Shown here piece after piece: positions 191-24,119 of a stretch of 64,000 bases of DNA. The first letter of the stretch is position 1. Every line of letters starts with the position of its first letter. The translations under genes were made by a program, and so were the position numbers. The notes under the pieces are model-generated. The model saw only the letters and a list, made by a program, of their open reading frames with translations. It searched no databases and was not told the origin of the DNA. The stretch comes from Escherichia phage vB_EcoM_RZ. The stretch is taken from the sequence record MW598459; one strand, written 5' to 3'.

Positions 191-466
191 TTATAATCTT
201 TTAAATTTGAAACAATACATTGCAAATAAATCAGAAAAATGTCTATCAACCCATATTCTTTGCACTGGACTAGTAACAGTCAACATATAATGTGATTTTT
301 GTAAATTTATTCCATTTTTATTCGGGCATTCTTTATTAACAGAATGGTACGTGCTTGCTACTATTTCAATTTCCCTTTCATATCTCTCGCTATCTGTTTG
401 TGTGGGGATAAATGCAATCCCAGCAATAACAAAAATAGAGATATACGTCCAAACCTTGTATATCAT
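191..466 (-). CDS. small membrane-anchored protein (sits where T4 has rI next to tk; identity not established)
   Basis: 91-aa ORF with hydrophobic N-terminal helix WTYISIFVIAGIAFI followed by a Cys-containing soluble part; tightly packed upstream of tk. Confidence 0.45.
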   Translation of the reverse strand: MIYKVWTYISIFVIAGIAFIPTQTDSERYEREIEIVASTYHSVNKECPNKNGINLQKSHYMLTVTSPVQRIWVDRHFSDLFAMYCFKFKRL

Positions 467-473
467 GCGAACC

Positions 474-1046
474 TCAGCTTGTTAATTCGAGCCAATGTTT
501 CCTGCATAAAGATACGTACGATTCATTCCCACCGACTAACACTTGCTCGCCGTCCTTTACAGCAGCACCGTCGATTACTCGCGCGGTCATGGTTGCTTTC
601 CGGCCGCAATGACAGACGCCCTTTAATTCAACCAGTTTATCCGAAATAGCCAGAAGTCTGGCTGAACCGGGAAATAATTGACCCCGAAAATCTGTTCTTA
701 ACCCGTAACACATAACGGGGATATTGTAATTATCAACCACTTGAGCTAACTGGTCAATTTGCTCTGGTAACAAAAATTGAGCTTCATCGACCAGGACACA
801 ATGGATATCCTTTTGAGACTCGGCCCATTTATAGAATTCAAACAGGTTCATGTCGGCCGTTACCAGGTTTGCTTCCTGGCTAATACCAATACGTGATTTG
901 ATTTCAGATTCCGAGTCCCGATTATCAATAACAGGTTTTAGCAAAAGCACACTCATTCCACGCTCTTTATAGGAATAAGCTGCAGTCAGCAATGAAGCTG
1001 TTTTGCCTGCATTCATTGCTGCGTAATGATAAATTAAACTCGCCAT
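474..1046 (-). CDS. tk: thymidine kinase
   Basis: 190 aa; P-loop YAAMNAGKTASLL, CVLVDEAQFL, CYGLRTDFRG, C-terminal Zn-ribbon cysteines; closely resembles bacterial/T4 Tdk. Confidence 0.95.
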   Translation of the reverse strand: MASLIYHYAAMNAGKTASLLTAAYSYKERGMSVLLLKPVIDNRDSESEIKSRIGISQEANLVTADMNLFEFYKWAESQKDIHCVLVDEAQFLLPEQIDQLAQVVDNYNIPVMCYGLRTDFRGQLFPGSARLLAISDKLVELKGVCHCGRKATMTARVIDGAAVKDGEQVLVGGNESYVSLCRKHWLELTS

Positions 1047-1055
1047 ATCACCTTC

Positions 1056-1241
1056 TTAAAGCGTATTCACATAAGCTATTAATTCGTTTTCTTTCGCATC
1101 AAATCGATTAGCAAATTCTTCCTGATGTTCGGCATCTATCGGACCATATTCATCATAAAAGGCGTTTGCTTCCGTATGCTCATCCAAAAGCTCATGGATA
1201 AGCTCAAATAATCTACTTTTCTGACTAATGCTTAAACTCAT
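1056..1241 (-). CDS. hypothetical small acidic protein
   Basis: 61-aa ORF in tight operon spacing downstream of next gene. Confidence 0.45.
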   Translation of the reverse strand: MSLSISQKSRLFELIHELLDEHTEANAFYDEYGPIDAEHQEEFANRFDAKENELIAYVNTL

Positions 1242-1444
1242 TTCGGTTCACCATATCGCACAAATTTAGGATGTTCGCAATAACCAGAATGAAAACCTTC
1301 ACCCTTATGATTAGAACATCCTTTATTAGAACAGTACCACCAGTAATCATATTCGCAATTCATTTCATCATTGCATAAAGCTGCGATTACTGGCCATTCA
1401 CATTTTTCACATTTGGCCGTTTTAAGAATTCGGGCTTGGCTCAT
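1238..1444 (-). CDS. hypothetical Cys-rich small protein (possible Zn-binding)
   Basis: 68 aa with CEKCEW..CNDEMNCEY..CSNKGCSNH..CEH cysteine/histidine clusters; overlaps neighbours by 4 nt. Confidence 0.5.
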   Translation of the reverse strand: MSQARILKTAKCEKCEWPVIAALCNDEMNCEYDYWWYCSNKGCSNHKGEGFHSGYCEHPKFVRYGEPK

Positions 1445-1895
1445 AATCCACCACTATTAAATCAATATCAGGAGTAAACATGTCGATTAATTTAGAAACC
1501 TTATCCCAATCGCCGCCAGCAATACCACAACCAATACGAGGAATATAAATTACCGGTTTAAACAAAAGGGTTTCTGCCTGTAGATTTAATTCTATCATAC
1601 AATTTACTAAAGCGCCATAATCAAGATTAGGGCCCGGTTCATATTGGGTGTACAAATTATAGCACATACCAAACCCAGTAGGTTTATGTTTAAAAACAAT
1701 AGACATATCGCCGAGTTTTTCTCTGGAACCATATTCAGTAGTGGTTTTATCTATTTCTAAAACTTTTGGATAGGCCTTCGCCAACTGTCCAGCTACGCCA
1801 GAACCCATTGTGTGAAAGCAGTTGCAACCATGTGCAATAATATTGCCTTGAAGAAAGAGGGCGACGATATCGCCCTTAATATACTGGGTAATCAT
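1422..1895 (-). CDS. macro-domain (ADP-ribose binding/processing) protein
   Basis: 157 aa; motifs GDIVALFLQGNIIAHGCNC, GSGVAGQL, IPRIGCGIAGGDW are typical of macro domains. Confidence 0.7.
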   Translation of the reverse strand: MITQYIKGDIVALFLQGNIIAHGCNCFHTMGSGVAGQLAKAYPKVLEIDKTTTEYGSREKLGDMSIVFKHKPTGFGMCYNLYTQYEPGPNLDYGALVNCMIELNLQAETLLFKPVIYIPRIGCGIAGGDWDKVSKLIDMFTPDIDLIVVDYEPSPNS

Positions 1896-2251
1896 TTAGA
1901 GTTCAACCCTCTATTATATGAATCCACTAACCTGTCAACCATACTGGTGCAGGCCGCCTTATATTTTGCACTTGAAAGAATGCAATCCATTTCAAATAAT
2001 TTCTTTTCATATTTGTTGGATAATACATTCTTTTTCAAAAGTGTATGTTCAACATCATTTTGGCCATCTTTATATGCCGCGGTGAGCTTGGCGCTGAACT
2101 GGATTACACAATCCACATTGCTTGGTGCGCAATAATCTTTAGCCGTCCTCGTTGCATATTCTATGATGCTGTTGTTGTCATCGCTCTGTACTGAAGCTAT
2201 TCCTCCCATGCTGAATACTAACCCTATGGCTAAAGTGATAACTCTTACCAT
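1892..2251 (-). CDS. hypothetical secreted small protein
   Basis: 119 aa; N-terminal signal-peptide-like MVRVITLAIGLVFSMGGIASVQS; several Cys. Confidence 0.5.
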   Translation of the reverse strand: MVRVITLAIGLVFSMGGIASVQSDDNNSIIEYATRTAKDYCAPSNVDCVIQFSAKLTAAYKDGQNDVEHTLLKKNVLSNKYEKKLFEMDCILSSAKYKAACTSMVDRLVDSYNRGLNSK

Positions 2252-2253
2252 TT

Positions 2254-2796
2254 TTAATCCACCGTTTTTAATAGGCCTCGTGATTTTAAGTAGTTAGCTT
2301 TTTCTAGGACCTGTGAAGCATACGTATTACCAGCTTTCACATTCCATCCTGCGTTATATGATGATAGTGTTTTCCTTATATCCCCCTTATGAATATTCAA
2401 CCAGTATGAAAGCTCAATGTAAGCCCAGCGTGCACTGTTCTCTCTCTTGCTTATCATCTTGATTATTTCTTTATCTGTCATTGTCCACCCAACCTGTTTC
2501 ACGCGTTCGCGCACGGTTGGAAGATAATTTTGGAATATACCATATGCATGATGCTTATCTTTATTTAATCCAGTATTAATCCCAGCAGAACTCTCCTGCC
2601 AGGTTAAACCAGCCATGATATATCCCAAACCATTATGTTGGTGCGGATTTTCTTTGTACTTACCATTTTTCTGGAACTGTTCTCCAAACGCATAAGCATA
2701 TTGGAGGTTTTCCATTTGTTCATTACTGAAAGTAGGCTCTACGCTATGGGCAGACATACTAACTGTCAATAGTAAGGTGGCGATTACTTTTTTCAT
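2254..2796 (-). CDS. exported lytic transglycosylase-like (SLT domain) protein
   Basis: 180 aa; signal peptide MKKVIATLLLTVSMSAHS; SLT-like motifs LTWQESSAG (E-S), YGIFQ, SYNAGW. Confidence 0.6.
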   Translation of the reverse strand: MKKVIATLLLTVSMSAHSVEPTFSNEQMENLQYAYAFGEQFQKNGKYKENPHQHNGLGYIMAGLTWQESSAGINTGLNKDKHHAYGIFQNYLPTVRERVKQVGWTMTDKEIIKMISKRENSARWAYIELSYWLNIHKGDIRKTLSSYNAGWNVKAGNTYASQVLEKANYLKSRGLLKTVD

Positions 2797-2806
2797 GAAT
2801 TCCCCA

Positions 2807-3265
2807 TTAGATATAAATCACTTTTGTGCTAATTTTTCCTTCCAGACGATTAGAGTTAACAAACGCCATACGACAACACATGGTCGGAGACTTCCCAGGA
2901 ATAGCGGGGTTAACTGTCATTCCTAACCACAGGTTCTTGTCCGTGATTTCCAGACGAAGTGGACGGTAGTTCACATTCGGGTCAATTTGTGCTTCAACTT
3001 CCGGGAGTGGTTTCATCTCCAAGAATTCAACGATTTCTTTTACATGTGGTGTGATTTTTCCAAACAAGTCAAAAACATATTGTTCATCAATTTCACGTTG
3101 GATTGCACGGTCCAACAGGTGTGGACTGTACTTAATGAAGAATGCCTCAAGGCCTGCTTCTTTACAAGCCTTGTTGATAGCATTATTAATTTTGAGGAAC
3201 TCCGTTTCAAAAATGCGACGAAGTTTATTGCGGCGAATGTAAACACTTGAATCGATAGTAGTCAT
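2807..3265 (-). CDS. hypothetical protein
   Basis: Start placed at internal ATG (MTTIDSS) with SD AAGGAG; the longer track ORF would run through the upstream promoter. Confidence 0.5.
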   Translation of the reverse strand: MTTIDSSVYIRRNKLRRIFETEFLKINNAINKACKEAGLEAFFIKYSPHLLDRAIQREIDEQYVFDLFGKITPHVKEIVEFLEMKPLPEVEAQIDPNVNYRPLRLEITDKNLWLGMTVNPAIPGKSPTMCCRMAFVNSNRLEGKISTKVIYI

Positions 3266-3292
3266 GATTATCTCCTTTTGTTTGATGGGATA

Positions 3293-3321
3293 ATCATAAC
3301 TCATTTCAATCTGCTTGTACA

Positions 3322-3322
<1 letters not shown>
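3293..3322 (-). promoter_or_regulatory. T4-type early promoter cassette (-35 GTGTAC, 17 bp, -10 TTATGAT, leader TATCCCATCAAAC)
   Basis: Minus-strand reading GTGTAC-N17-TTATGAT-TATCCCATCAAACAAAAGGAG-ATG; same architecture as the other cassettes listed. Confidence 0.5.
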
Positions 3323-3901
<579 letters not shown>

Positions 3902-3905
<4 letters not shown>

Positions 3906-4120
3906 TTCACTTCCTCATCAGATGCAGTATCATATTCTACCAAACGAAGGCCATCATATCCGCCACGAACAGAGATATACGTACTCGGATAAACAATTTC
4001 TTTACCATTCCATTGGCCACCGTCCCAACATTCCATAAAGCCTTGTTCGCCCTGTTCATGGAACCAGTCAACAAACAGCTTCAGAGCTTCTTCAGAACCT
4101 TCAATTGTCAATTTAGACAT
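3902..4120 (-). CDS. hypothetical protein
   Basis: 72-aa ORF in operon packing. Confidence 0.45.
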
Positions 4121-4409
4121 ATTTTTTCCAATCAGAAATCATATGAATCTCTTGGTCATAAGTCAAGAGACTACGAGTAATAATACCCTTACAAGGCCCA
4201 GAGATGAACTCGAGAGTAAAGTAAGGAACCTGTTTCATTAATCGGATACTTGGAGCATGACATCTAAAACGAGAGCCCTTAAAGGGCCCCGACATGAATA
4301 CATATTCTAATGGATAGAAATAAGCATATTCAAAATTTGTAGTAAGGTCCTCTCTTCGGACCTTACGTGAGAAATAGCAGAACTCAAAAAGTTCTTCATC
4401 AGTCATCAT
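4113..4409 (-). CDS. hypothetical protein
   Basis: 98-aa ORF in operon packing. Confidence 0.45.
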   Translation of the reverse strand: MMTDEELFEFCYFSRKVRREDLTTNFEYAYFYPLEYVFMSGPFKGSRFRCHAPSIRLMKQVPYFTLEFISGPCKGIITRSLLTYDQEIHMISDWKKYV

Positions 4410-4933
4410 TGCATTCCTATCACAAAGAACAGTGGCAGAGGTTTAGAACCTTGGCACATAAATTTATTCATCATTGTCTGATAAGCTTCATAGAACTTAT
4501 CCATCGCTGGTAGGCGAATAGGCTCTTCAATAATAATCAATAATCGGGTAACAGACAGTCCACGATATTTGTGAAAATGATCTTCATCTAAAAATGAACG
4601 AACAGTATCATATACAACAAAACCAGGTCGTTCAACATTAAGATGTGGCTGTGCTTTAGAAACCCGCTTTATTATATCACAGATTTCTCGTGAGCGATGC
4701 GAAGAACTCGACATAACAATTACATCATTACCCTTAGAAACCCAATCCGCAGCAAATTGTGCAATGGCACTTGTTTTACCTGTTTGCCTTCCGCCGTCAA
4801 GTCTAAGAGTACCAAACTCTTGCATTCTTGAAGCGGGTTCATACCAGGTGTATTGGTCTGAATCTAAGCGTTCAATGGCGCGTTCAGCGAAGGCGTGCAT
4901 TAAGGTTAGATAAATGGGAGTTAAAAATTTCAT
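4406..4933 (-). CDS. small P-loop NTPase-like protein
   Basis: 175 aa; Walker A GGRQTGKTS and Walker-B-like hydrophobic stretch LLIIIEEP. Confidence 0.5.
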   Translation of the reverse strand: MKFLTPIYLTLMHAFAERAIERLDSDQYTWYEPASRMQEFGTLRLDGGRQTGKTSAIAQFAADWVSKGNDVIVMSSSSHRSREICDIIKRVSKAQPHLNVERPGFVVYDTVRSFLDEDHFHKYRGLSVTRLLIIIEEPIRLPAMDKFYEAYQTMMNKFMCQGSKPLPLFFVIGMQ

Positions 4934-5093
4934 AGTTGCCTCTTAGTTGTGGGGCCGTTCCTTGGCACATAATTCATCCGTGTATCCGTATGTAAACCCT
5001 TTACCGCACTTGGGCTCGACCTTATTACAGGTAGGGAAAGGTCCATCACTCAGAGGACGCAACGTTCATGAGGAGAGGGTCGGCTTGCCTTTA

Positions 5094-5393
5094 TTAGAAA
5101 GAACCAGAGCCTTTAATTGTGTTCTGGCGACCTTTATTTTCTAATTCAGAATGGTCGATTTCGTATGCTTGTGCTACACCAAAGGCCTTTTTAACTTTAG
5201 CTAAAGAACCTTTAGATGTAACAATATTAAAAGTATTACCTTTGGTAAAATCAACCAAATCAACTTGTACACCCTGTTTACCGAGGCTTGCGACAATAGC
5301 ATCAACATATTGTTGGTCTAAAGTACCTTGGACTCCAATTTGGAATGCTTTAGGGGCTTTGGCTTCTGTGATAAATTCTTGATAAGTTTTCAT
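5094..5393 (-). CDS. internal-protein-like head protein with capsid-targeting sequence
   Basis: Start at internal MKTYQEFITEAK; matches the N-terminal capsid-targeting sequence of T4 internal proteins (IPI/II/III); sits next to denV/e as ipII/ipIII do in T4. Confidence 0.6.
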   Translation of the reverse strand: MKTYQEFITEAKAPKAFQIGVQGTLDQQYVDAIVASLGKQGVQVDLVDFTKGNTFNIVTSKGSLAKVKKAFGVAQAYEIDHSELENKGRQNTIKGSGSF

Positions 5394-5441
5394 TTTATAT
5401 TCCATTGTTTGGCTGATAAAATCATTATACAACCTTTTTAG

Positions 5442-5858
5442 TTAAGCGTACACAGCTTTCCCATAGTATTTGTACCAAGCAGGCTTTTGAGAAATTTTCT
5501 CATTCAGTCTGGCTTGACTGATTTCAATTGACCAGATTGATGGTTGATAATCATTCTTCCATTCATCAGGAATATCAGTTAAATCTTGGGTAGAAATATC
5601 TTTTATGTTAAACCCTCGCTTTAAACATTCCGCAATAAGTTCTTGATGCCGGTTTTTAAGGAACAAAAGCTTATCATAAAAGAAGATGACATGACCAGTC
5701 CCTAAAAGGAAAGATGATGGGATTTTAAAGTCAGAAACCTTTTTACCATTTTGTACATGCTTACGAACAGCACCAAACACGCGAGGAAGTTCACGATATT
5801 CAGCCATAAGATGTTGGTCAGCGAGTTCAGATACCAGGGTTAAATTAATGCGAGTCAT
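5442..5858 (-). CDS. denV: endonuclease V (pyrimidine-dimer DNA glycosylase)
   Basis: 138 aa; N-terminus [35 protein letters not shown] near-identical to T4 DenV. Confidence 0.95.
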
Positions 5859-5884
5859 GTTTGTTCTCCGTAGTTGATAGGGTC

Positions 5885-5914
5885 ATTATAACCCTATCAT
5901 TTGGAGATGTACAC
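5885..5914 (-). promoter_or_regulatory. T4-type early promoter cassette with dyad around -10
   Basis: Minus strand GTGTAC-N17-TTATAAT; -10 flanked by inverted repeat GATAGGGT/ACCCTATC; leader CAACTACGGAG before denV ATG. Confidence 0.5.
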
Positions 5915-6402
5915 TAATATGCGTCAAAAGTTCCGGTGCGGAAAGTTTCAATAACTCGTTTAGCTCGGTTCGGAGTCTGGACTTTATACCATCTTGAGTC
6001 TGCCAGTTCCTTGGCAGCCGCTTCCCATGATTTAGCCTTCAGCAATCGCATACCCTTAGGAAAACCAGCAACACCAGCAACACCCATCTGGAATACCATA
6101 TTAATGAGTGCACAACGACGAACTTCATCAAGTACATCATAAACAGGTTTTAAGACAGGATGCCTCAAGATTCCGGCTTTAGCTTTTTCGACCGAACGGT
6201 TAAACAATGTTTCAGCTTCGTGCTGGGTTATGCGACCATTACAGACGCGACCCATGAGCTTGTCGAGCTCGGCACGAGCAACATCTTTAGATGGGTTCTT
6301 AGTTATCAGTTGCCCGATGCCAATGGTCCAATAGCCTTCAGTATCTTTATACAAATCCAACTTACAACCTTCATCTATACGTAACATTTCGAATATATTC
6401 AT
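5914..6402 (-). CDS. e: T4-type lysozyme (endolysin)
   Basis: 162 aa; [47 protein letters not shown] matches T4 lysozyme throughout. Confidence 0.97.
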
Positions 6403-22380: not shown

Positions 22381-24119
22381 TTAATATGTCAGATAATGTA
22401 AGTTGGTTCGTCGGTGTTGTCGAAGACCGAATGGACCCACTTCAACAAGGCCGAGTCCGTGTCCGTGTATGGGGTATGCATCCATATGAGAAATCGCAAG
22501 GGCCTGTAAAAGGTATCAGAACTGAAGACCTGCCATGGATGTCTGTACTGATGCCAACATCATCTGCATCAGTTTCTGGTATTCAAACTGCAATGACCGG
22601 TATGGTGCCAGGGACTCAAGTATATGGTCACTTTTTAGACAAGTGGAAACTCAACGGGCTTGTTATTGGTACGTATGGTTCAGCCTCAAGACAAAAAGCA
22701 AATCCCAACGAAGGCTTCTCTGACCCCACAGGACAATATCCACTTTATGTAGGTAATGATGCTGCTGCGCTCAACCGTGGCGGTGAGGTTGGTTATGATG
22801 CAACTTCGAACGTAATTCAGGATGCAAACACCGATGTAGGTATTAACCCTGATGGCCTTGATTTGAGTCAAGTTAAGCCAGATGATAATCCTAATTTCAC
22901 AATTGAAAATATGCTTCACCGTGATGAAGGTCTTCGTTTGAAAGTATATTGGGACACCGAAGGTTATCCTACTATAGGTATAGGACACTTAATTGCACCA
23001 CAACCTATTAGAGATATGAATCAGATAAACAAAATATTATCTAATCAAATAGGCCGTGAAGTTAAAGGTAACCCTGGTGCAATATCAATGGACGAGGCTT
23101 CTAAGTTATTCCAGGAAGACCTTAAAAAAGTTCAAAACGATATAGGCCGGCATAGTGTTGTAGGCCCGGTTTACAATAAAGAAAACCGTTCGAGACAAAT
23201 GGCTCTTGAAAACATGGCTTTCCAAATGGGATTGGGTGGGCTTGCTAAATTTAAAACGATGCTCGCTGCAATGTTAGCCGGAGATTATAAGAAAGCATTT
23301 GATGCCGCCCGTGATTCTGTATGGTTTAACCAAACTAAAGGCCGTGCATCAAGGGTATCAATGATTATCCTCACAGGTAATATGGAATCATATGGTATTA
23401 TGGCCCCTAAAGAAAGGTCATTTAAAGGGCGTTCATATAGGATGATTCAAACCTTTGCAGCCCCTGCAAATTCTGACCCAGCCGACCCGTGGACTCCAGA
23501 AGATACGAGGATTTTGTTTAAAGAGCCAGAATCCAGTTACAAGGGCGAATATCCTTATGTGCAGACAATGCAAACTGAAGGCGGGCATGTTCAGGAATTC
23601 GATAACACCCCTGGACAAGAACGTTATCGACTGATTCACCCGACCGGTTCCTATGAGGAAGTTGCACCAGATGGTCGTAAGACTTCGAAGACAGTGGCTG
23701 ATGGATATTATATGACCCAGGGCGATTCGAGTACTTACGTTGGCGGTAATAATAAAGTCAACGTTGGTGGTGATGAAACCTATTATAATATGGCTAACGT
23801 TCGTCGTCAGACCGATGGAAACGAAAGCATTCATATTCGTGGGAATGAAACCAAAACCATTGAAGGTGACGGTACAATTATTGTCAAAGGTAATGTAAGT
23901 ATTCTGGTCGAAGGTAATGCTGAAATAACTGTTAAAGGTGACGCAAAAACTCTTGTCGAAGGTAACCATGATTATACGGTAAATGGTAATGTCAAATGGT
24001 CCGTTAATGGAAACGTTGATATGACCGTGGCTGGCAATTGGTCCGAAACAATGTCAACAATGAGTTCTATTGCATCTGGTCAATATACTATTGATGGTTC
24101 GAGGATTGACATTGGCTAA
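22377..24119 (+). CDS. 5: baseplate hub + tail lysozyme gp5
   Basis: 580 aa; N-terminal OB domain, lysozyme domain (DEGLRLKVYWDTEGYPTIGIGHLI) and C-terminal beta-helix repeats (VEGNAEITVKGDAKTLVEGN). Confidence 0.95.
   Translation: MINMSDNVSWFVGVVEDRMDPLQQGRVRVRVWGMHPYEKSQGPVKGIRTEDLPWMSVLMPTSSASVSGIQTAMTGMVPGTQVYGHFLDKWKLNGLVIGTYGSASRQKANPNEGFSDPTGQYPLYVGNDAAALNRGGEVGYDATSNVIQDANTDVGINPDGLDLSQVKPDDNPNFTIENMLHRDEGLRLKVYWDTEGYPTIGIGHLIAPQPIRDMNQINKILSNQIGREVKGNPGAISMDEASKLFQEDLKKVQNDIGRHSVVGPVYNKENRSRQMALENMAFQMGLGGLAKFKTMLAAMLAGDYKKAFDAARDSVWFNQTKGRASRVSMIILTGNMESYGIMAPKERSFKGRSYRMIQTFAAPANSDPADPWTPEDTRILFKEPESSYKGEYPYVQTMQTEGGHVQEFDNTPGQERYRLIHPTGSYEEVAPDGRKTSKTVADGYYMTQGDSSTYVGGNNKVNVGGDETYYNMANVRRQTDGNESIHIRGNETKTIEGDGTIIVKGNVSILVEGNAEITVKGDAKTLVEGNHDYTVNGNVKWSVNGNVDMTVAGNWSETMSTMSSIASGQYTIDGSRIDIG

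Follow-up and report, generated by a model that had tools for sequence, protein, structure and literature searches.

T4-like phage genes vs.1 and vs as a putative early periplasmic module: a predicted exported muralytic enzyme and its candidate partner

Escherichia phage vB_EcoM_RZ (sequence record MW598459) is of the JS98/SP18-like lineage of T-even phages (genus Gaprivervirus). The window analysed here is a stretch of 64,000 nucleotides (nt) of its DNA, to which all coordinates refer, and it contains two adjacent open reading frames (ORFs) at 2254-2796 (180 amino acids, aa) and 1892-2251 (119 aa). Comparison of their sequences identifies them as orthologues of the long-annotated T4 genes vs.1 and vs, an identity that was missed when they were singled out as an exported SLT-like lytic transglycosylase next to a small secreted protein (the original prediction). 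Both ORFs exist at these coordinates and lie on the minus strand, which had been left unstated. From sequence and structural modelling, Vs.1 can be read with high confidence as an exported muralytic enzyme of the SLT fold, and the sequence of Vs makes its export likely as well. The evidence leans slightly towards the two genes forming a conserved, early periplasmic module of an enzyme and a partner. The genes and the SLT prediction for vs.1 were already known, and the finding re-identifies two annotated members of the T4 family. What is new, all of it computational, is a firm fold and catalytic assignment, export signals throughout both families, and a conserved vs.1-vs module that contradicts the label attached to vs.

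The SLT motifs quoted in the original prediction, W66-Q-E68-S69, G86-I-F-Q89 and S146-Y-N-A-G150, are all present in Vs.1, and in an alignment of 31 close relatives the invariant columns are W66, E68, S69, S70, G86, Q89, N90, E128, W132, Y147-N-A-G150 and Y159. In an alignment of 45 sequences reaching down to 25% identity, Q27, E68, W132, Y147, G150 and Y159 are still invariant, and E68, G86, E128, W132, the SYNAG motif and Y159 are conserved in lineages both with and without vs. The catalytic Glu, on whose presence the original prediction had made the assignment depend, is E68, invariant in both alignments and followed by S69 in all the close members. A profile of the wide family, compared with the sequences of solved structures, retrieves EtgA at E 1.3e-4, with 'AAIAwqESsaG' opposite 'KAIAWNESKNK', and goose lysozymes at E 0.01-0.07, aligned at 'AAIISRESRAG'. 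E68 is thereby placed opposite the E-S Glu of EtgA and of goose lysozyme, the catalytic residues Glu42 and Glu73, respectively, of these enzymes. The AlphaFold2 model of Vs.1 has a mean predicted local distance difference test score (pLDDT) of 85.4, with values of at least 85 for most of the domain, and a predicted template modelling score of 0.80. A Foldseek search with this model returned almost exclusively lytic transglycosylases and g-type lysozymes, with Tse3 among the matches, which places it in the lysozyme-like, alpha-helical SLT/goose-lysozyme fold.

Some results count against this assignment. The window Vs.1 matches Pfam SLT (PF01464) at E 0.029 and 14.4 bits, short of the gathering score of 21.3, so the SLT assignment rests on family-level and fold evidence. 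Furthermore, the profile of the close family found no relevant match among PDB sequences, its top match being a metacaspase at E 0.36, and the literature searched yielded no experiment on Vs.1. At the family level, PF01464 is matched by all 31 aligned relatives at E <=1 (best 1.3e-7), and a precomputed match is present in 16 of the 89 family clusters. Vs.1 corresponds to phrog_600 (E 2e-67), catalogued as 'unknown function', and an NCBIfam search gave nothing meaningful for Vs.1 or Vs. The SLT similarity was published in 2006 as a 'marginal' match in six T4-like phages (PMC1524935), and the SLT label for vs.1 orthologues appears in some GenBank records. Labels of these orthologues are chaotic, ranging over 'endoribonuclease', 'C-type lysozyme/alpha-lactalbumin family', 'putative lysin', 'membrane-bound lytic murein transglycosylase F' and 'SLT domain-containing'. 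One apparent family member, a 2679-aa tandem-repeat protein (P0132) with E 1.4e-39 against the Vs.1 profile, was discarded as spurious, the score being the sum of 18 weak repeat matches to positions 123-166.

The chemistry of the enzyme is a separate matter. Instead of a lytic transglycosylase, Vs.1 could be a true lysozyme, and hence a hydrolase, or a murein-binding protein with weak catalytic activity, and goose-type lysozymes do score equal to transglycosylases in the fold and profile searches. In addition, the invariant E128, which is absent from EtgA, could act as a second carboxylate, which leaves room for hydrolase chemistry and in that respect also counts against a transglycosylase; the loop after the catalytic Glu (residues 73-79) is, moreover, poorly modelled at pLDDT <50. 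However, the family alignment holds no conserved Asp at the second-acid position of goose lysozyme or EtgA, a position taken from family knowledge, and this favours transglycosylase chemistry. Moreover, all four motifs of the family 1 transglycosylases are present in Vs.1, and the hydrolase or weak-binding reading is improbable.

Export was assessed with a rule, heuristic only, that asks for a basic residue, an uncharged hydrophobic core of 7-15 residues and then either a small-residue site at -3/-1 or a lipobox. Vs.1 begins with MKK, continues with VIATLLLTVSMSA, a core of about 13 residues, and ends the segment in A-H-S, with a predicted cut before VE; it lacks Cys, a lipobox and any second hydrophobic segment. 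The predicted cleavage site, without which the original prediction was to be given up, is kept in 30 of 31 close and 41 of 45 distant members, and two of the failures in the family are evident upstream mis-starts (P0088, P0125). With a looser test, 108 of the 132 full-length representatives from a library of 1.84 billion proteins pass. Divergence is quicker in the N-terminal segment, at 31% pairwise identity, than in the domain, at 55%, and residues 1-20 appear in the model as a detached helix at pLDDT 61-66. A signal-anchor-release (SAR) endolysin was considered, and the sequence speaks against it. In such endolysins an N-terminal transmembrane segment of about 18-20 residues, weakly hydrophobic and rich in Gly and Ala, stays uncleaved; the short core of Vs.1 is followed by a cleavage-type site, with no other hydrophobic segment in the protein. 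SignalP was run on all ORFs in an earlier genome comparison (Nolan 2006), and a search of its supplements retrieved no signal-peptide entry for vs.1.

The window has 77 non-nested ORFs with 90 aa or more, of which three pass the export heuristic, and two of these are the adjacent vs.1 and vs. The third, at 191-466(-), encodes 91 aa with a strongly hydrophobic N-terminal anchor (MIYKVWTYISIFVIAGIAFIP...) and has the position of T4 rI.1, beside rI, a gene of lysis inhibition; its label in PP693301, 'head assembly GroEL cochaperone', is apparently a mislabel.

The signal-peptide-like start that had been noticed in the adjacent ORF is borne out across the Vs family. The window Vs begins with MVR, followed by VITLAIGLVFSMGG and G-I-A, with a predicted cut before S, and all 25 diverse orthologues keep the signal pattern at only 29% identity over the segment. 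In Karamvirus orthologues (Enterobacter phage CC31, Cronobacter phage Pet-CM3-4) an L-S-G-C lipobox stands at the position of the cleavage site, and five orthologues of the locus set described below have such a lipobox. These Karamvirus proteins, labelled 'vs valyl-tRNA synthetase modifier' (loci L038-L040, L042, L057), start with MKKLFVLLVVFALSGCK..., a textbook lipoprotein signal; the copy at L042 is truncated to 65 aa. Vs corresponds to phrog_1256 (E 8.5e-33), and PF26829 is precomputed on 28 of 28 homologue clusters. The hydrophobic N-terminus, the cysteines C41, C48, C90 and C101 and a nearly invariant C-terminal block, S-M-V-D-R-L-V-D-S-Y-N-R-G-L, are found in all 24 aligned sequences. 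The model of Vs is a four-helix bundle with an unstructured leader (pLDDT <50 for residues 1-8 and 13-23), in which the Cys pairs flank the helix1-helix2 and helix3-helix4 loops at one end. Judged from sequence and model, the four Cys probably form two disulfides. Escherichia phage vB_EcoM_005 (L012 3541-3798; P0117) carries an 85-aa Vs with an in-frame deletion that removes the first Cys pair and helix 2, by its sequence possibly a decaying copy. Homology of Vs to Spackle was tried and rejected at an hhalign probability of 2.7%.

Predicted export of Vs conflicts with the label 'valyl-tRNA synthetase modifier'. Vs is reportedly the tau peptide that binds the cytoplasmic valyl-tRNA synthetase (ValRS), and vs mutations are said, from work by Marchin in 1980, to allow T4 to plate on valS(ts) relA, an in vivo link. 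Both reports speak against an exported Vs, as would a cytoplasmic Zn(Cys)4 site, which the four Cys at one end of the modelled bundle could form instead of disulfides. It is conceivable that Vs is this cytoplasmic peptide, with an N-terminus that stays uncleaved or is only partly exported, that its adjacency to vs.1 is tight packing, and that Vs.1 acts alone. The name of vs and its biochemical history, which for ValRS binding and modification goes back solely to T4 work of the 1970s, agree with such a reading (cited in PMC8076793 and bioRxiv 10.1101/2025.11.20.689424), as does its place as the most depleted gene in minimal medium in the second of these, a transposon study whose authors relate the depletion to translation; the presence of vs.1 without vs in several phage groups fits it as well.

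However, the export signals of Vs are hard to fit to a cytoplasmic peptide. The signal pattern persists in every diverse orthologue at the low identity given above, and the four Cys are conserved. T4 Vs begins with MTKILVLCIGLISFSASASA, with a predicted cut before DTS that would reduce the 13.1-kDa precursor to a mature protein of 11.0 kDa; the purified tau factor was reportedly about 10 kDa. A leaderless form of T4 Vs is not available, since no internal Met occurs ahead of residue 100. The lipobox that replaces the cleavage site in Karamvirus orthologues, which GenBank also labels vs, is similarly hard to reconcile with a cytoplasmic location. Moreover, T4 Vs produced at full length with a His tag proved insoluble in the cytoplasm and collected in inclusion bodies (PMC8076793). 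Taken together, a cytoplasmic Vs is rather doubtful. An exported Vs could possibly meet ValRS through binding of the precursor, through dual location, or through mixing of compartments in extracts. Vs is often mislabelled in databases as 'valyl-tRNA synthetase', an enzyme that it is not.

Linkage of the two genes was examined at 70 IMG/VR loci with a Vs.1 relative. At 55 of them a Vs-family ORF starts between -8 and +7 nt from the vs.1 stop, where a T4-type hidden Markov model had found 48 and one rebuild raised the number to 55. The linked loci span phages of Escherichia, Klebsiella, Enterobacter and Acinetobacter, a breadth that speaks against packing as the sole reason for the adjacency. 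The Vs proteins of Klebsiella and Acinetobacter phages are too diverged for tblastn and were recognised by profile comparison, the former with an hhalign probability of 97% and E 1.4e-11, the latter with E 9e-5 and all four Cys aligned. In Klebsiella phage Roth80 (L008 2363-2755) and Acinetobacter phage Minot (L007 2312-2737), the vs-like gene is followed by a third signal-peptide protein of 130-141 aa, with two conserved Cys in the mature domain and a common C-terminal ...RV(W/Y)N..NEY.TYK motif. There, the genes make a run of three predicted exported proteins; such a gene is absent from the window.

Of 50,697 phage records, 2087 contain Vs.1-like proteins; Vs-like proteins occur in 806 records. 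The Vs.1-like proteins come from T4-like phages whose hosts are enterics, Aeromonas, Acinetobacter and Vibrio, from Ackermannviridae (e.g., Det7 gp70) and from Felixounavirus, and they form a compact family of 480 representatives at E <=1e-3. When the genomes of 185,579 bacterial and archaeal species were scanned for the pattern, one locus emerged, on a 167-kb contig of T4-like length filed as 'bacterium'. The Vs.1 family thus appears to be essentially phage-restricted, and no host origin was found in that scan.

The early expression assumed in the original prediction agrees with T4 data, in which vs.1 and vs are classed as early transcripts and protein is detected by mid-infection (PMC9697503 supplement). 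A T4 transposon study gives both genes as non-essential on plates, with saturation of 0.94 for vs and 0.88 for vs.1 (bioRxiv 10.1101/2025.11.20.689424, as for the values that follow). In the liquid LB control, the mean insertion counts were 26.6 for vs and 22.6 for vs.1, whereas the remaining genes of the stretch that runs from tk to vs.8 had 128-767 (for example regB 179, tk.4 290 and vs.3 652). Only vs and vs.1 are depleted in this stretch, and they have a common fitness profile that the other genes there lack. On passing from LB to M9-glucose, the log2 change was -2.19 for vs (adjusted p 0) and -0.87 for vs.1 (p 0.0055, adjusted 0.155); among the other genes of the stretch regB changed by +1.17 and the rest stayed within ±0.3, none significantly. 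From K-12 to the clinical strain CFE299, vs.1 changed by -1.20 (adjusted p 0.015) and vs by -1.04, not significantly, with regB at +0.69, the rest within ±0.4 and none significant. In the same study a phage deleted for vs was confirmed to have a plaque defect in M9-glucose.

Several findings weigh against a paired function of the two genes. Pseudotevenvirus, Aeromonas 44RR-type phages, Ackermannviridae and Felixounavirus carry vs.1-like genes without vs, which indicates that Vs.1 does not need Vs. The common transposon phenotype could be due to a polar effect on vs of insertions in vs.1, and a fold search with the Vs model gave no match to any known inhibitor. In the Pseudotevenvirus (RB43/GAP161 type; loci L068-L075), a gap of 67 nt separates vs.1 from the next gene, whose product is an unrelated protein of 131-134 aa without a signal peptide, and a terminator was predicted directly after RB43 vs.1 (Nolan 2006). 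Vs.1 of these phages retains E68, E128, SYNAG and Y159 and differs at about a dozen positions conserved in vs-containing phages. Eight positions conserved only in vs-containing lineages (F23, S24, N30, I60, Q67, S70, W124, Y169) were considered as a possible interface; this cannot be separated from plain phylogeny, and no claim is made of it.

In the mechanism proposed here, the closely spaced and probably translationally coupled vs.1-vs module would be made early, and both products would reach the periplasm via Sec. Vs.1 would probably be cleaved after residue 18 to give a soluble, single-domain, basic protein (18.7 kDa, isoelectric point 9.4), which most probably cuts the bond between N-acetylmuramic acid and N-acetylglucosamine in host murein, with Glu68 as the sole catalytic acid, as a lytic transglycosylase. 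Vs would probably be cleaved after residue 19 to an 11.2-kDa four-helix protein, probably with two disulfides made by DsbA. Mature Vs may then bind Vs.1 and restrain or tune it, and the pair could let the phage hold wall-cutting activity in the periplasm before lysis without premature killing or lysis. Gene structure, conservation, motifs, predicted fold and gene linkage were observed directly, and early expression and a mild cost in fitness are documented for the T4 orthologues in published work. We infer the export and cleavage, the enzymatic chemistry and the disulfides; binding between Vs and Vs.1 and the direction of its effect are speculative and drawn from analogy. Vs has an even chance of being a functional partner of Vs.1. 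Its gene lies beside vs.1 at the 55 linked loci and its product is likewise predicted to be exported, two of three traits looked for in a periplasmic inhibitor or immunity protein of the Spackle, Tsi3, Ivy or PliG type, the third being direct binding of the enzyme. The choice of inhibitor over activator is little better than a guess. A fuller reading would have vs primarily encode an exported, disulfide-bonded partner of Vs.1, probably an inhibitor or regulator, within a conserved T4-like envelope module, with ValRS 'modification' a side effect of the precursor or of compartment mixing and the M9 defect an envelope phenotype; this chain of claims is, as a whole, rather unlikely.

As the original prediction stated, the window also encodes lysozyme e at 5914-6402(-) and the gp5 lysozyme domain at about 22902-23393(+); no Vs.1 paralogue is present in it. 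Vs.1 could be seen as a second, Sec-delivered endolysin that accumulates in the periplasm and contributes only at lysis, together with e and the holin, with Vs uninvolved. Such a role has been proposed for Tgl of Kayvirus and is known for secreted endolysins. In T4, vs.1 is an early gene, far in timing from holin t and e, and the Felixounavirus gene lies after rIIA-rIIB and before pnk, not in a lysis cassette. Moreover, an unrestrained periplasmic transglycosylase would reach murein immediately, so control would be needed, and the coupled Vs is the obvious candidate for it. By established T4 genetics, e mutants do not lyse, and Vs.1 therefore cannot replace e. A second endolysin is accordingly somewhat unlikely.

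It is also conceivable that the module is aimed at other phages or cells, through a change of the wall that hinders superinfecting phage, a guess that the original prediction had offered alongside wall remodelling, or through release at lysis onto neighbours or debris. The evidence for this is circumstantial: T4 has other early periplasmic proteins in such roles (Spackle, Imm), and vs.1 insertions were significantly depleted on the one clinical strain. However, no data tie vs.1 or vs to exclusion, and the fitness cost arises in ordinary single-strain liquid culture, which makes this explanation very improbable.

The predicted module of Vs.1 and Vs lies in a densely packed locus. Bases 1400-3400 share 99.5% DNA identity with Yersinia phage vB_YenM_P8, with matching gene calls, and 96.7% with Shigella phage SP18. 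The genes follow one another on a single strand in the order regB, vs.1, vs and tk.4 (Table 1), and plus-strand ORFs across the vs.1/vs region are unsupported. A Shine-Dalgarno-like GGTGGA run lies within the 3' end of vs.1, ahead of vs, and the tight spacing of the two genes suggests translational coupling, as judged from the sequence. The spacer before vs.1 is too small for a promoter of its own, and vs.1 is probably read through from regB. A sigma-70 promoter scan of 1000-6000 was uninformative, with 16 sites against 15.2 expected from shuffles. The macrodomain gene tk.4 belongs, as the gene downstream, to this densely packed transcription unit and lies outside the proposed periplasmic module. 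Its T4 orthologue has lately been named AdfM, an anti-DarT2 factor (bioRxiv 10.1101/2025.11.20.689424), and a 'phosphatase' label persists for tk.4 orthologues in many GenBank records. The mechanically called regB ORF, 2807-3322(-), has a GTG start and 171 aa; its Pfam RegB match begins at residue 23, its nearest relative is annotated with 165 aa, and, from the sequence, the true start is probably an internal ATG at Met7 or Met20.

Table 1. Features of the vs.1-vs locus in the window (functions and processing sites are predictions)
Feature	Coordinates	Strand	Remarks
vs.1 coding sequence	2254..2796	-	180 aa; predicted exported, fold of lytic transglycosylases/goose lysozyme; T4 Vs.1 orthologue, ~65% identical
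Vs.1 signal peptide	2743..2796	-	residues 1-18, MKKVIATLLLTVSMSAHS then VEPTF; predicted cleavage after A-H-S
Glu68 codon (GAG)	2593..2595	-	predicted catalytic acid, then Ser69; invariant W-x-E-S-S motif
G86-I-F-Q89	2530..2541	-	motif II of family 1 lytic transglycosylases; G and Q invariant in close family
Glu128 codon	2411..2413	-	second invariant, family-specific Glu (E-L-x-x-W132); opposite Tyr in EtgA
S146-Y-N-A-G150	2347..2361	-	motif III (A/S-Y-N-x-G); Y147 and G150 invariant even in wide family
Tyr159 codon	2320..2322	-	invariant motif IV tyrosine
vs.1/vs junction	2249..2256	-	vs.1 stop TAA 2254-2256, 2-nt spacer, vs ATG 2249-2251
vs coding sequence	1892..2251	-	119 aa; T4 Vs orthologue ('valyl-tRNA synthetase modifier', ~46% identical); predicted exported four-helix protein
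Vs signal peptide	2195..2251	-	residues 1-19, MVRVITLAIGLVFSMGGIA then SVQ; predicted
Conserved Cys codons of mature Vs	1949..2131	-	C41 2129-2131, C48 2108-2110, C90 1982-1984, C101 1949-1951
regB-vs.1 spacer	2797..2806	-	10 nt; contains vs.1 Shine-Dalgarno-like GGGGA
tk.4 macrodomain gene	1422..1895	-	ATG overlaps vs stop (4-nt ATGA); Pfam Macro E 2.8e-8

Where a marginal domain match used to be the sole ground for the SLT prediction of vs.1, the fold, the alignment of the catalytic Glu and signal peptides throughout the family now make it much firmer, and vs.1-like genes for predicted exported enzymes emerge as a widespread early gene of T4-like phages, Ackermannviridae and Felixounavirus. 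The export signals found for vs in every lineage examined challenge the textbook label. Furthermore, the predicted export of Vs offers a concrete and cheap approach to the purpose of ValRS modification and to the importance of vs in minimal medium.

Among known proteins, the closest counterparts of the pair are those of T4. T4 Vs.1 (NP_049725, UniProt P13311) has about 65% identity over the full length and is alike in signal peptide, motifs and position between regB and vs; the window copy is the JS98/SP18-lineage version, with no substantive difference. T4 Vs (tau factor, 'valyl-tRNA synthetase modifier'; NP_049724, UniProt P13310, PF26829), at about 46% identity, has the four Cys and the C-terminal block in common with the window Vs; its catalogued role is cytoplasmic, whereas the sequence features of the whole Vs family indicate export. 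The nearest solved relative of Vs.1 by sequence is EtgA, a small 'specialised' transglycosylase. In contrast to EtgA, Vs.1 has an extra N-terminal helix (F-S-x-x-Q...A-Y-x-x-G) and the invariant E128 and lacks the Asp60 of EtgA, and, unlike the secretion-system transglycosylases of the EtgA/IpgF/VirB1 type, it is not encoded with a trans-envelope machine. Slt70, MltE, MltF, MltC, MltD and goose-type lysozyme (GH23) are more distant, at about 13-20% identity, and Vs.1 lacks accessory domains and a lipid anchor.

For the proposed role of Vs, the available parallels are analogies. T4 Spackle, small and exported, restrains a muralytic enzyme, the gp5 lysozyme, and would parallel Vs in this respect without homology. 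Similarly, in type VI effector-immunity pairs such as Tse3-Tsi3 the periplasmic restrainer, with a signal peptide or as a lipoprotein, is encoded directly downstream of the enzyme, as vs is downstream of vs.1. Kayvirus Tgl, from the staphylococcal phage K group, is a Sec-secreted muralytic protein of the phage that bears transglycosylase motifs and is made besides the main endolysin, and its gene can be transcribed by the host RNA polymerase, like early genes (PMC7150955). Vs.1 is proposed to work in the same way, and the likeness is functional: Tgl differs from Vs.1 in its Gram-positive host, in its IsaA/SceD-like domain family and in having no reported coupled partner.

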